From: an uncultured Puniceicoccaceae bacterium
GTDB lineage: Bacteria; Verrucomicrobiota; Verrucomicrobiia; Opitutales; Oceanipulchritudinaceae
DNA length: 64,000 bases
Direction: 5' to 3'
Assembly: GCA_963933835.1 (NCBI GenBank)
Contig: CAWVVV010000002.1
Span: forward strand, 384,001 to 448,000
The position numbers and the translations under genes were made by a program. Under the pieces are notes generated by a model, which was not told where the DNA came from, ran no database searches, and was given only the letters and a program-made list of their open reading frames with translations. This document shows positions 53,215-56,815 of the stretch, piece by piece (position 1 is the stretch's first letter; every line of letters starts with the position of its first letter).

Positions 53215-54606
53215 ATGACTACAGACCTTTCCCAGATGACTTTCCCCAAAGCGAGCACTCCACACCCGAAGGAGACGCGTATCATCCTAGCGAATTCAGA
53301 GCGCGAAGATTTTGACGCTTCGATCGACTGTTACACACGCAATGGCGGATACGATGTGCTGAAGAAAGCACTCTCGATGAAACCGGAGGAGGTTCACCAA
53401 GAAGTCCTCGATAGTGGAATTCGTGGCCGCGGCGGTGCTGGCTTTCCTGCAGGGATGAAATGGAAGTTTCTCGATCGCAAAAGTGGTAAGCCGATCTACC
53501 TGATCTGCAACGCGGACGAGTCGGAGCCGGGGACCTTTAAGGACCGCCAAATCATGCACAAAGATCCGCATCAGCTGATCGAAGGCATGATGATCACGGC
53601 CTACGCAATCAACGCTGCCCAAGCCTTTATCTATATCCGCGAAGAGATGCCTTATGGCGCCCAGATTCTCGATCAAGCGATCGCAGAGGCGAAGGCCGTT
53701 GGTTTTGTCGGCGATAATATCGGCGGAAGCGGATACTCCTGTGAGCTGATTGTTCACCGTGGTGCTGCAGCATACATCTGTGGTGAAGAAACAGGGCTCA
53801 TTGAGTCGCTCGAAGGCAAGCGCGCCTATCCGCGAATCAAGCCTCCTTATTTTCCAGCAGCCCTCGGCCTCTACATGTGCCCGACAATCGTGAACAACGT
53901 GGAGACGCTTTGCCATGTGAAGCATATTGTTGAGCGAGGCGGTCGGGCGTATTCAGAAATTGGGACGCCGAATAATTCTGGAACACGTATCTGGTGCCTC
54001 AGTGGCCACGTCATGCGCCCCGGTTACTACGAACTCGAAACGGGTAAAGTAACCTACGGTGAGCTGATCAATGATATCGGAGGAGGCTTGCGTTCAGGAC
54101 GCACCCTACAGGCGGTCATTCCAGGCGGCTCGAGTTCAAAGATCTGGCGCGCCGGTGAACGCTTTAAAGGCAAGCTCCGAAATGGAACAGAGTTTGACTG
54201 GGCGATCGATGATATCCCGCTCGATTTTGACAGCCCGGCTGCAGCTGGGTCGATGAGTGGCTCCGGTGCCGTCATCGTGATCGACGATAGCGCCGACATC
54301 GTCGAGGTGCTCGCGAACATCAATGAGTTCTACGCACACGAAAGTTGCGGCCAATGCACGCCGTGTCGTGAAGGTAGCCTCTGGATGAAAAAAATCACTG
54401 CGCGTATGGCCAGAGGTGGCGCCCGACCAGAAGATGCTCAGCTTCTCGCCTCGATCGGTGATCAAATCGCAGGGAAGACAATCTGTGCCCACGGTGAAGC
54501 CTGCGCATGGCCGACCCAGAGCTTTGTTAATAAGTTTGAAGATAAATTCGTCGCGAAGGCTGAAGACAAGAGCCCTGAGCCAAAGAGTGAATTCCAAATG
54601 GTGTAG
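53215..54606 (+). CDS. nuoF: NADH-quinone oxidoreductase subunit F
   Basis: GRGGAGFP, NADESEPGTFKDR, YICGEET, HESCGQCTPCREG. Confidence 0.97.
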   Translation: MTTDLSQMTFPKASTPHPKETRIILANSEREDFDASIDCYTRNGGYDVLKKALSMKPEEVHQEVLDSGIRGRGGAGFPAGMKWKFLDRKSGKPIYLICNADESEPGTFKDRQIMHKDPHQLIEGMMITAYAINAAQAFIYIREEMPYGAQILDQAIAEAKAVGFVGDNIGGSGYSCELIVHRGAAAYICGEETGLIESLEGKRAYPRIKPPYFPAALGLYMCPTIVNNVETLCHVKHIVERGGRAYSEIGTPNNSGTRIWCLSGHVMRPGYYELETGKVTYGELINDIGGGLRSGRTLQAVIPGGSSSKIWRAGERFKGKLRNGTEFDWAIDDIPLDFDSPAAAGSMSGSGAVIVIDDSADIVEVLANINEFYAHESCGQCTPCREGSLWMKKITARMARGGARPEDAQLLASIGDQIAGKTICAHGEACAWPTQSFVNKFEDKFVAKAEDKSPEPKSEFQMV

Positions 54607-54612
54607 TAGGAA

Positions 54613-55032
54613 ATGGAGACACAAGTAATTAACCACGAAGTTCACGAAGAGCACGAAGGCTATACTTTCGAGCCTCTCTCGAAACGTATCATTTCCGCAG
54701 CGATCGAGGTTCATCGCGAGTTAGGTCCAGGTCTTCTTGAATCCGCATACATGGCGTGTTTCGCGCATGAATTGTCTTTAATGGACATTGAGGCTGAGTT
54801 AGGGGTCCCTCTGCCTGTTCAATACAAAGGCTTGGCGGTCCCGACTAGCTATCGAATGGATTTGGTAATTGATAATGAAATTTTAGTGGAGTTAAAGAGC
54901 GTTGCTTCACTCGAGCCTATTCACGAAGCACAGGTTTTAACTTACCTTAAGCTCTCTGGTTTGAAAAAGGCTCTGCTGATTAACTTTAATGTTCCATTGT
55001 TAAAAGACGGCATCCGCCGATTTGTCCGATGA
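54613..55032 (+). CDS. GxxExxY-family PD-(D/E)xK nuclease-fold protein
   Basis: VHRELGPGLLESAY, YRMDLVI...VELKSV, H.AQVLTYLKL, LINF. Confidence 0.93.
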   Translation: METQVINHEVHEEHEGYTFEPLSKRIISAAIEVHRELGPGLLESAYMACFAHELSLMDIEAELGVPLPVQYKGLAVPTSYRMDLVIDNEILVELKSVASLEPIHEAQVLTYLKLSGLKKALLINFNVPLLKDGIRRFVR

Positions 55033-55082
55033 AACGATTCAATTCTAGTTTTTTCTTCGTTAACTTCGTGATCTTCGTGTTA
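54631..55082. mobile_element. Putative minimal mobile element: GxxExxY gene between inverted 3x CACGAAG arrays
   Basis: Left CACGAAG at 54634, 54643, 54652; right CTTCGT(T/G) at 55055, 55064, 55073; 22/28 identity between the arms; AT-richer than flanking nuo genes. Confidence 0.55.
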
Positions 55083-55114
55083 GAAAACCACGTTATATTC
55101 GAGGACATTATTTA

Positions 55115-56815
55115 ATGAGTAACTCGATCGAAGATTTGATTAGGATTAACCTGAACGGTAAGGACGTTGAAGTTCCTAACCGAATGAATCTCGTCGATGC
55201 GGCTGAGATGCATGGCGTCGAAATTCCGCACTATTGCTACCACTCTAAGCTCAGTGTGGCGGGTAATTGCCGCATGTGTCTGATTGAGATGGGCACGCCG
55301 GGTCGTGACCGTGCGACAGGTGAGGCAATGCTCAATGAGGATGGCTCGCCGAAGATCATGTGGGTGCCAAAGCCGGTTATCGCCTGTGCGACGAATGTAT
55401 CGCCGGGGATGCATGTGAACACGGAGTCCGAAACGGTGAAGGGATGCCGCGAGGGCGTAATGGAATTTCTCCTCGTAAACCACCCGCTGGATTGCCCGAT
55501 TTGTGACCAGGCAGGGGAGTGCCGCCTGCAGGAATTTTCAACCGACTATGGCCGTGGCTACTCACGCTTCATCGAAGAGAAGAACGTAAAGCCCAAGCGC
55601 ACTCGTATCGGCCCGCGCGTCATGTTGGATGATGAGCGCTGTATTTTGTGCTCCCGTTGCGTTCGCTTTGCAGACGAAATCATTGAAGATCATGTCCTCG
55701 GCTTTATCGACCGTGGCAGCTACTCGACGCTGACGACCTTCCCAGGTAAAGAGCTCAATAGTAATTACTCTCTAAATACTGTGGACATCTGCCCGGTGGG
55801 TGCGCTCACGAGCACTGACTTCCGCTTTAAAATGCGAGTTTGGTTCCTCCGGGAAACGCCTTCGATTGATGCCGAGTCGAGTGTTGGTTGCAACACCATG
55901 GTCGGCAGCCGCGAGGGTAAGATTTACCGAATCACTCCGCAACAGAACGACGAAGTAAACGACACTTGGATGCCTGACTCAGGTCGCGAGCTCTATAAGA
56001 AGGTAGAGTCTAAGGATCGTCTCGATAGCTACGCGATCGAAGGTCGTCCAGTATCGGCAGATGAGGCTCTGGCAAAAGCAGCCGAACTCTTGCAAGGTGG
56101 TAAGGTCGCGATCGTCGGCAGCGCTACGCTTGCGCTCGAAGAACAATTTGTCCTCACCAAAATTCGTGAGACACTCGGTGCTGAGATCCCGTCGTATTGG
56201 GTTTCTCATTACGCAGATGGTGATGGGAAGCTCTTAAGTGCAGACCGCACGCCGAACCTTCGCGGCGGTCTCTTGAGCGGGTTTACCGATGCACTTCCGG
56301 TAGCAGAGCTCAGCGAGCTCGGAGCGAAAATCGATTCCGGCGAAATCACGACGATCTTGTCTGTCGGTGAAAAAATTTGTGCTGCAGGCATCAGTGATGA
56401 ACAGCTGAAAAAGGCGAAGGTCATTTACATTGGTGAAGAGCTTTGCTCGACGAGTCAGTTCGCAGAGGTCGAGATCCCACTTCTCACCGTGTTTGAAAAA
56501 TCAGGCACCTTCGTTAATCAACAGTTTCGAGTGCAAAAGTTCACTCAGGCGATTCCAGGGCCATCGAGTGTGATCTTTGGACTCTCTAATTTTACCAAGT
56601 TGCACCACCTCCTCGACGCCGATTCGCCGTATGCGCCAAGTCCGGCCGCGATCTGGCAACACATGGCACAGGCGGTGCCCGAATTTGCCGACCTGACCTT
56701 CAACGGAATCCCGGCGACGGGCGTTGTTGTTTCCGATCATCGATTCGCGGCGCTTGAATTCGTTGATGGCCCGTCGATTCACTTTCAGCCCAAAAACGCT
56801 GCCGTTGAGGCCTAA
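55115..56815 (+). CDS. nuoG: NADH-quinone oxidoreductase subunit G (short form)
   Basis: IPHYCYH, GNCRMC, HPLDCPICDQAGEC.LQ, CILCSRC, CPVGALT. Confidence 0.95.
   Translation: MSNSIEDLIRINLNGKDVEVPNRMNLVDAAEMHGVEIPHYCYHSKLSVAGNCRMCLIEMGTPGRDRATGEAMLNEDGSPKIMWVPKPVIACATNVSPGMHVNTESETVKGCREGVMEFLLVNHPLDCPICDQAGECRLQEFSTDYGRGYSRFIEEKNVKPKRTRIGPRVMLDDERCILCSRCVRFADEIIEDHVLGFIDRGSYSTLTTFPGKELNSNYSLNTVDICPVGALTSTDFRFKMRVWFLRETPSIDAESSVGCNTMVGSREGKIYRITPQQNDEVNDTWMPDSGRELYKKVESKDRLDSYAIEGRPVSADEALAKAAELLQGGKVAIVGSATLALEEQFVLTKIRETLGAEIPSYWVSHYADGDGKLLSADRTPNLRGGLLSGFTDALPVAELSELGAKIDSGEITTILSVGEKICAAGISDEQLKKAKVIYIGEELCSTSQFAEVEIPLLTVFEKSGTFVNQQFRVQKFTQAIPGPSSVIFGLSNFTKLHHLLDADSPYAPSPAAIWQHMAQAVPEFADLTFNGIPATGVVVSDHRFAALEFVDGPSIHFQPKNAAVEA

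Follow-up and report, generated by a model that had tools for sequence, protein, structure and literature searches.

The PF13366/GxxExxY proteins and the proteins encoded by the intervening sequences (IVS) of 23S rRNA are abundant in bacteria and archaea and, to our knowledge, neither family has a known function. The transposases associated with repetitive extragenic palindromes (REP), known as RAYTs, are Y1 HUH enzymes encoded by old genes. Phage Mu and transposon Tn7 carry several transposase-binding sites at each end, use a DDE transposase and produce 5-bp target duplications, and the TnsA protein of Tn7 is a PD-(D/E)xK nuclease that takes part in end processing. Free-standing homing genes have, as far as we know, neither conserved terminal arms nor gene-less derivatives. 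The present work concerns a GxxExxY gene found between nuoF and nuoG in a 64,000-nt stretch of DNA from an uncultured Puniceicoccaceae bacterium (contig CAWVVV010000002.1, positions 384,001 to 448,000 of the forward strand; hereafter the window, with positions counted from its first letter), where the gene is enclosed by two inverted arrays of heptamers, the arms of what we call the cassette. PMC4990558 describes the IVS of Coxiella as 428 nt long, bounded by a 28-bp terminal stem, excised by RNase III and of suspected mobile origin. For PF13366 itself, PMC3424549 lists the function as 'Unknown' and records 'multiple transfers', and PMC8934634 mentions the domain in passing.

Positions 54629-55084 of the window are considered, with moderate confidence, to be one copy of a widespread family of compact (~450 bp) one-gene cassettes. 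The explanation that we favour, and that we hold to be about evenly balanced between right and wrong, is a selfish one-gene cassette that was inserted as DNA. Its arms would act in cis as sites, most probably of the nuclease that it encodes, and it would be carried along in host transcripts, where the arms can form a stem similar to that of an IVS. The array-armed GxxExxY cassette is apparently an undescribed kind of selfish DNA cassette, and no description of the heptamer arms was found in the literature outside subscription journals. The cassette and its immediate surroundings contain the following features:

53215..54606, + strand: nuoF, the upstream host gene, encoding the 51-kDa subunit that binds flavin mononucleotide (FMN) and NADH (PF01512 6.9e-48, PF10589 1.3e-28); stop codon TAG at 54604-54606
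54607..54628, + strand: spacer outside the left arm, with an apparent ribosome site of the cassette and an ATG (54613), from the sequence
54629..54658, + strand: left arm, TTAAC (54629-54633) followed by three CACGAAG heptamers (54634, 54643, 54652) with spacers TT and AG, from a repeat search, a pattern count and the family consensus
54613..55032, + strand: gene for the GxxExxY/PDDEXK_3 nuclease-fold protein, 139 aa, from the list of open reading frames (ORFs), profiles, an alignment and a structure model
55055..55084, + strand: right arm, CTTCGTT, CTTCGTG and CTTCGTG (55055, 55064, 55073) with spacers AA and AT, followed by TTAGA (55080-55084), from a repeat search and a pattern count
55115..56815, + strand: nuoG, the downstream host gene, encoding the 75-kDa iron-sulfur (Fe-S) subunit (PF22117, PF10588, PF13510 and others)

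An earlier note, made from the letters of the window, had reported a 139-aa GxxExxY gene between nuoF and nuoG, which the ORF and its PF13366 and TIGR04256 matches bear out. This gene is the only ORF inside the arms and, therefore, the cassette encodes no DDE, tyrosine, serine or HUH enzyme, in agreement with the same note. The three CACGAAG heptamers and the inverted array behind the gene, also described there, were recovered both in the sequence and by a repeat search: the nuoF-nuoG copy contains three plus three heptamers, inverted and with a period of 9 nt. The 28-nt arms originally delimited match at 22 of 28 bases in a hand count on the sequence, and the repeat search returned arms of 25 nt each (54634-54658 and 55055-55079), 84% complementary and with 396 nt between them. 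When up to two mismatches are allowed, the triple-heptamer pattern occurs twice in the 64-kb window, exactly at these arms, and not once in 100 dinucleotide-preserving shuffles, which rules out a chance repeat. The right arm is non-coding and starts 22 nt 3′ of the cassette stop codon, and in-frame translation of the left array gives N-HEV-HEE-HEG. At the outer ends of the cassette, the left TTAAC is intact, whereas the right TTAGA is degenerate, GT[G/T]AA being expected there. The block had been said to be AT-richer than nuo, and it is, with a GC content of 0.425-0.46 in the cassette against 0.53-0.57 in the nuo flanks. Two public DNA sequencing runs, read as contigs, contain the cassette unchanged; the joints seen in them are conserved nuo parts, from other organisms. 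A search of sequencing runs listed none of RNA that contains the locus.

The arms were followed through a sample of 146 loci: 7 from the genome to which the window belongs (G000, 1.94 Mb), 59 from a set of 40 related genomes, and 80 from public genomes with names, which belong to Verrucomicrobiota, Planctomycetota, Acidobacteriota, Chloroflexota, Cyanobacteria, Gemmatimonadota, Gammaproteobacteria and one Methanotrichaceae archaeon. Two congeners of G000 are referred to as G001 and G002. All seven PF13366 genes of G000 are enclosed by inverted CRCRRAK heptamer arrays, of types CACGAAG, CACGAAT, CACGGAT, CGCAGAT and CACGGAG/CACAGAG, and their arm scores of 30-54 lie above the 95th percentile of a cross-locus control, which is 25. 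For the 137 loci with full flanks, 206 windows displaced by 900 nt within those loci served as controls. An inverted repeat exceeding the 95th percentile of these shifted controls (n = 206) was found in 117 of the 137 loci, and tandem heptamers in both arms in 88 of the 137, compared with none of the 206 control windows. Paired inverted arrays, which the earlier note expected at other GxxExxY genes as well, are thus almost universal in the family.

A typical arm begins at its outer end with TT[C/A]AC (TTMAC), conserved in both arms, and continues with three CRCRRAK heptamers; counted for each arm, three heptamers are present in 70 of 89 loci, and the conservation drops to background beyond positions -7 and +26. 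The 9-nt period put forward for the window copy is true of that copy but not of the family as a whole, in which periods of 8 nt (142 times) and 10 nt (44 times) occur beside those of 9 nt (143 times). The upstream arm is separated from the domain by a median of 26 nt, and the downstream arm from the stop codon by a median of 7 nt. Likewise, the translation of the left array is real in the window copy but atypical: the only in-frame start (ATG 54613 in the window) is found upstream of the array in 9 of 89 loci, our copy included, and in 60 of the 89 relatives an ATG in frame with the gene is available within the arm itself. The commonest heptamers are CACGGAG and CACAGAG, the former being the most common of all (163 of the heptamers counted). 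CAC(G/A)GAG is found from Acidobacteriota to Cyanobacteria and the Methanotrichaceae archaeon, with proteins only 49-64% identical to that of the window copy, the nearest relatives of which belong to other phyla (60-64% identity). Under the strict pattern, arrays are confined to a single arm in 19 of the 143 loci for which both flanks are available.

At a set of loci with reversed polarity (L070, L072, L083, L086, L095, L046, L148, L164, L170 and L172), the pyrimidine-rich array is upstream and the TTCAC ends point toward the gene; such arrays could be neighbouring elements or an inside-out arrangement of the same parts. PF13366 matches are also often found within a few hundred bases of contig ends, for example at G003:C81:31-381, G019:C203:72-410, G005:C10:50-328 and G029:C297:99-419. 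This crowding suggests that the arrays break short-read assemblies and makes the copy counts in draft genomes lower bounds.

The constraint on the arms is strongest for heptamer identity, unit number, mirrored register and terminus, and far weaker for spacer sequence. At variable heptamer positions, two arms of the same locus agree at 0.90 and arms of different loci at 0.58, with 0.88 for neighbouring units, whereas the corresponding values for spacer bases are 0.60 and 0.39. Spacer lengths are mirrored between the arms in 158 of 166 pairs, compared with 36% between loci. In the window copy, too, spacers vary around preserved heptamers, as the earlier note had remarked: the left arm has TT and AG, the right arm AA and AT. 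Given that heptamers and register are constrained far above the spacers, the pattern fits sequence-specific sites and not a mere stem.

The 139-aa protein matches one family only, PDDEXK_3 (PF13366; E 2.6e-39, 134.7 bits with a cut-off of 22), residues 22-137 being aligned to profile positions 3-117 of 117, and the corresponding GxxExxY model TIGR04256 is matched with E 1.4e-40 and 138.3 bits (cut-off 35). The catalytic D...ELK had been described as intact, and the residues of the motif are indeed present: D83 (54859-61), E93 (54889-91) and K95 (54895-97). In an alignment of 120 sequences, K95 is invariant, and D83 and E93 are kept in at least 90%. The AlphaFold 2 (AF2) model is confident (predicted local distance difference test, pLDDT, 88.6) and adopts the PD-(D/E)xK fold, with residues 1-16, encoded by the left array, predicted to be disordered. 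Its best fold matches are all PD-(D/E)xK enzymes in the middling range (Cas4 SSO0001, Z 7.8; BpuSI, 7.5; BglII, 7.4; Hjc, 6.3), and I-Bth0305I is among the weak ones; a sequence search for a solved structure of a relative gave 0 matches at E up to 1. The conservation of D83, E93 and K95, together with the confident PD-(D/E)xK model, makes it likely that the enzyme is active.

All seven copies of G000 are found directly behind housekeeping genes, namely those for nuoF, a miaB-like protein, a class I tRNA synthetase, an isocitrate/isopropylmalate dehydrogenase, an aldehyde dehydrogenase, an AIR-synthase-related (AIRS) protein and an enoyl reductase. Among 97 loci, with crude ORF calling, the cassette has the same orientation as its two neighbours in 54 and the opposite orientation to both in 11. 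No promoter-like site was found in 54300-55400 and, because of the sense orientation and the lack of a recognisable promoter of its own, the window cassette is presumably transcribed by read-through of the nuo operon. An Rfam scan of 54400-55300 gave no match. A terminator was considered and rejected, the region 54300-55400 containing one weak terminator-like hairpin, inside the ORF and at chance expectation. The arms pair with each other in both the minimum free energy (MFE) and the centroid folds of 54595-55120 (z = -2.13).

This pairing is central to an explanation that takes place only in RNA, which we regard as unlikely. According to it, the element is IVS-like, with arms forming a stem in the host transcript that RNase III cleaves or that makes the ribosome site inaccessible; the conservation of the heptamers would reflect RNA binding by the encoded protein (autoregulation) or descent, and spread would be passive, by horizontal transfer and homologous recombination in the flanks. 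The pairing in both folds, the tight placement of the arms around the ORF (the medians of 26 and 7 nt given above), the excess of sense orientation (54 loci against 11) and the missing promoter all agree with it, as does the precedent of the Coxiella element, whose 428 nt and RNase III-cut 28-bp stem are reported in PMC4990558. Moreover, CACGGAG contains GGAG, the partner of which is CTCC, so that pairing would mask a Shine-Dalgarno-like sequence. However, the mismatches between the arms do not show the excess of G:U on the sense strand that pairing in the transcript would favour (18 sense and 36 antisense of 113 arm mismatches at GxxExxY loci), the spacers are less complementary than the heptamers, and a stem would need neither three fixed units, nor a terminal TTMAC, nor one motif shared across phyla. 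The pairing of the arms in the mRNA, which the earlier note had offered as an alternative, is thus predicted by folding and finds no support in the types of mismatch.

Genes of PF05635, the four-helix-bundle family known from 23S rRNA IVS, occur in the same genomes, and 24 of the 26 loci that could be evaluated likewise have inverted arms of tandem units. The sequence of these units changes freely from locus to locus (GGCTGTA, ATCTTA, CAATGCA, CGGAGGG and others), as does the number of units, and CRCNNAN heptamers are found at only 1 of the 26 loci. The same architecture with other motifs implies that the architecture is generic to small cassettes of this type and that the motif goes with the encoded protein family. 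Arms with freely changing motifs are what a pure pairing constraint predicts, in favour of an element acting in RNA only, but at these loci, too, mismatches of G:U type show no excess on the sense strand (31 sense and 28 antisense). Array-enclosed PF05635 genes are located in G000, outside the window, at C1:432323-433119 and C2:34355-35160, and at loci L187-L216.

The earlier note had taken the block to be an insertion, and the comparison of junctions agrees: nuoF and nuoG are adjacent, 10-181 nt apart and without a GxxExxY match, in 21 of the 23 relatives in which the junction could be evaluated. The remaining two are the congener G001, which has a GxxExxY cassette at the junction, and a genome with an unrelated 629-nt insert. 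The latter (G033, L030:2796-3491) belongs to another family of the order, and its insert contains small ORFs with no GxxExxY match. Six loci were not evaluable; in the congener G002, the junction could not be assessed, since a contig end truncates nuoF and a search for nuoG was negative. The nuoF-nuoG copy of G001 is 61-62% identical to the window copy, compared with 83% for the flanking nuoF and nuoG, and all six of its heptamers are CACAGAG, not CACGAAG. In a quick tree, the two copies do not form a common clade; an approximately unbiased (AU) test does not reject the clade (p 0.885), and the constrained tree has the higher likelihood. The junction comparison shows that the cassette was inserted at the DNA level between nuoF and nuoG, in the lineage leading to this genus.

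Other sites of the genus are decisive. The site that follows the miaB-like gene is empty in G002 and occupied by a CACRGAG cassette in G000 and by a CGCMGAT cassette in G001, the last being only 36% identical to the G000 cassette at the miaB site but 61% identical to a G000 copy at a different site. Different subfamilies at one site of two congeners, with the closest relative elsewhere, are hard to obtain by flank exchange alone and argue against the RNA-only explanation. The junction between the aminoacyl-tRNA synthetase (aaRS) gene and lpxI is empty in G002, contains a GxxExxY cassette in G000, and in G001 (L182, C493) carries a gene-less palindrome of 240 nt with CCTAAT/CCTACT hexamer arrays. 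The AIRS|HNH junction is empty in G002, the icd-like|alaS site has similar cassettes in G000 and G001 (69% identity, same heptamer type), and the aldehyde-dehydrogenase site could be located in neither G001 nor G002. Of 41 related genomes, 22 contain PF13366, and G002, which is 91% complete, has no match. Within the genus, related cassettes are gained and lost at other junctions of housekeeping genes. Neither a gene fixed at its position across the family with a congruent phylogeny, nor GxxExxY genes generally devoid of paired arrays, the two sequence-based outcomes that the earlier note had named as refuting its interpretation, was encountered.

Two of these sites show altered gene ends. When the miaB-like gene of G000 (L001:1400-2000, C2:161.7-162.3 kb) is compared with L178 of G002, the cassette is found within the 3′ end of the gene, which has a new stop codon, and the ancestral last ~10 codons are still recognisable downstream of the cassette, after a run of three CCACTC units. 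At the other site, the apparent start codon of lpxI in G000 is the terminal GTG of the cassette right arm (L003:1830-1930, C1), and the empty site of G002 has an ATG of its own.

Several results weigh against the favoured explanation of a selfish, DNA-inserted cassette with its own cis sites. Canonical arrays are absent in 35 of 143 loci, about ten of which have reversed polarity, several have other units and about a dozen have no repeat. The target duplication that the earlier note had suggested looking for was absent: none was detected in 84 loci, the observed numbers being equal to the expected ones for k = 2-8 and offsets 0-11. Near-identical copies were not found either; the paralogues within G000 are 30-52% identical to the window copy, unlike active families of insertion sequences (IS) or miniature inverted-repeat transposable elements (MITE). 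None of 50,697 phage records and only 7 of 72,556 plasmid records contain the GxxExxY family, and there is therefore no obvious vehicle. The window and G001 copies may equally stem from one old insertion, with a concerted change of six units, or from two insertions. Heptamer variants are not mirrored in register within a locus (0.925 vs 0.915, 12 loci vs 8, p 0.5), which is a negative outcome also for pairing in RNA. Arrays that covary with the protein had been anticipated, and heptamer position 7 (G/T) is associated with residues of the first helix (R/N, I/F-M and P/H-Y; z 16-27), but when the tree is taken into account only 2 changes and 1 independent pair are left and, with a single independent contrast, the association may be due to shared descent; the arrays do not covary freely with the protein, one CRCRRAK motif family extending across phyla. 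Finally, since the unrelated PF05635 family shares the arm architecture with freely varying motifs, tandem inverted arms as such may serve a generic stem function instead of being protein-binding iterons. The same record counts (0 of 50,697 and 7 of 72,556) led us to reject the cassettes as phage or plasmid cargo.

Insertion without target duplication is also a trait of free-standing homing-endonuclease genes. In that case the nuclease would cut the cassette-free nuoF-nuoG junction in the DNA of other cells and repair would copy the cassette in, the arms serving to insulate or regulate expression. The location of the cassettes between conserved housekeeping genes, with one diverged copy per site, their patchy distribution and the occurrence of their nearest relatives in other phyla at 60-64% identity are all compatible with homing, and PD-(D/E)xK homing enzymes exist, I-Bth0305I being one of the weak fold matches. 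We nevertheless judge it very improbable: a domain of ~115 aa without an extra DNA-binding module would need a different long target at each site, unrelated subfamilies are found at the same site and close relatives at different ones, and the conserved arms and the gene-less arrays would be left unexplained.

The gene-less paired arrays that the earlier note proposed are present in G000. The genome contains 88 arrays, compared with 14-25 in five shuffles, and 75 of them are not beside a PF13366 gene. The exact 7-mers most often repeated at 8-11 nt genome-wide are CACAGAG (16), CACGAAT (11), CACGAAG (10) and CACGGAT (10). Forward and reverse arrays form 24 pairs at most 250 nt apart, several of them type-matched or nested, as exemplified by the pair at G000 C4:174131-174225 within C4:174033-174272. 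Stacked and nested arrays also build up non-coding clusters at C1:88450-88900, C2:46100-46400, C3:15150-15600, C3:18600-18960, C3:289850-290200 and C4:173900-177350 of G000, an accumulation that is not expected of an element acting in RNA only. In these clusters, GGTTAAA and a module of 16 nt, CTTACAGAGCCTAAGC, typically come after each reverse array; at up to three mismatches the module has 35 matches, compared with 14 in a shuffle.

An arrangement of the kind formed by RAYTs and paired REP sequences (REPINs) would account for these arrays in another way: the gene-less pairs would be the mobile or amplifying units, and the GxxExxY genes, resident and largely vertical in descent, would disperse or maintain their cognate arrays from between repeats of their own. 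The 75 arrays away from any PF13366 gene speak for it, and at least ten of the listed array pairs have matched heptamer types, as read off the list. The abundant gene-less types (CACAGAG, CACGAAT, CACGAAG, CACGGAT and CGCAGAT) are those that flank the seven genes of G000, and CACGGAG, the commonest type globally, is rare among the repeats of this genome (3); in addition, the GxxExxY paralogues are old, as RAYTs are. We think this arrangement quite improbable, however, for the genes are patchy (22 of 41 genomes, none in G002) and change site within the genus, and the enzyme is not an HUH Y1 transposase. The gene-less arrays could equally be remnants of cassettes after internal deletion, and the match of heptamer types may be due in part to lineage effects.

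Returning to the favoured explanation, a selfish cassette inserted as DNA, the heptamers would act in cis as sequence-specific sites, to which several molecules of the nuclease encoded by the cassette would most probably bind. This nuclease would drive the movement or the retention of the cassette through a pathway without target duplication. In the transcript, the arms would pair into an interrupted stem of ~25 bp, like that of the ORF-bearing 23S rRNA IVS, and this stem may be cut by RNase III or may limit the translation of the nuclease, rendering the insertion harmless to the operon. Binding and cutting of the arms by the nuclease, the mechanism of mobility and the processing of the RNA are steps that we infer.

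A broader proposal, which we put forward tentatively and with more doubt than conviction, is a new mechanistic class of autonomous mobile element, in which a lone PD-(D/E)xK domain of ~115 aa would recognise triple-heptamer ends and move its own gene without target duplication. Such an element would prefer the ends of highly expressed housekeeping genes, shed gene-less hairpins and be looped out of transcripts and, together with the PF05635 cassettes, it would form a superclass of parasites of operons and rRNA, each with one gene and bounded by a stem. If true, this superclass would explain two protein families of long-unknown function. The heptamer arms provide the GxxExxY proteins with a conserved nucleic-acid partner, which opens their function to concrete experiments. 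Should the nuclease move the cassette, it would be a very small self-contained mobile unit with a short recognition motif of programmable appearance; should the arms act only in RNA, elements of the IVS type would be colonising mRNA operons as well as rRNA. In either case, the cassettes split conserved operons, can rewrite gene ends, such as the apparent lpxI start and the tail of the miaB-like gene, and appear to break assemblies.

The cassette differs from classical IS and MITE in having neither a target-site duplication nor near-identical copies. With free-standing homing genes (phage seg and mob genes and those of PD-(D/E)xK homing enzymes) it shares the location between conserved genes, the patchy occurrence and the missing target duplication, but GxxExxY cassettes have arms and gene-less arrays, and none was found in the 50,697 phage records. 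Iterated inverted sites at each end and a nuclease with a restriction-enzyme fold recall Mu and Tn7, a parallel that would include binding of protein at the cassette sites; unlike them, the cassette has one 139-aa protein and no target duplication. The likeness to the REP/REPIN-RAYT systems consists of a small enzyme gene flanked by inverted short repeats, of dispersed gene-less pairs and of repeat variants that match gene variants. The GxxExxY enzyme, however, has a PD-(D/E)xK and not a Y1 HUH fold, the arrays consist of three heptamers and not of one imperfect palindrome, and the genes are patchy and change site within a genus, with dozens of gene-less copies in place of hundreds.

The closest resemblance in size and layout is that to the 23S rRNA IVS of Leptospira and Coxiella burnetii with an S23p/PF05635 ORF. 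According to PMC4990558, these elements measure ~430-480 nt and contain one small ORF and a terminal stem of ~25-28 bp; they are sporadic, AT-richer than their hosts and long suspected of being selfish or once mobile, all of which is also true of, or suspected for, the cassette. The likeness extends to the PF05635 genes outside rRNA, which carry inverted tandem-unit arms as the GxxExxY cassettes do. Excision by RNase III is a demonstrated feature of the 23S IVS and a possible one of the GxxExxY cassette, which lies in the spacer of an mRNA operon (nuoF-nuoG) and encodes a PD-(D/E)xK fold and not a four-helix bundle. In contrast to the PF05635 arms, finally, the arms of the GxxExxY cassettes are built from one conserved heptamer family, in a fixed number of three units and with a conserved terminus.

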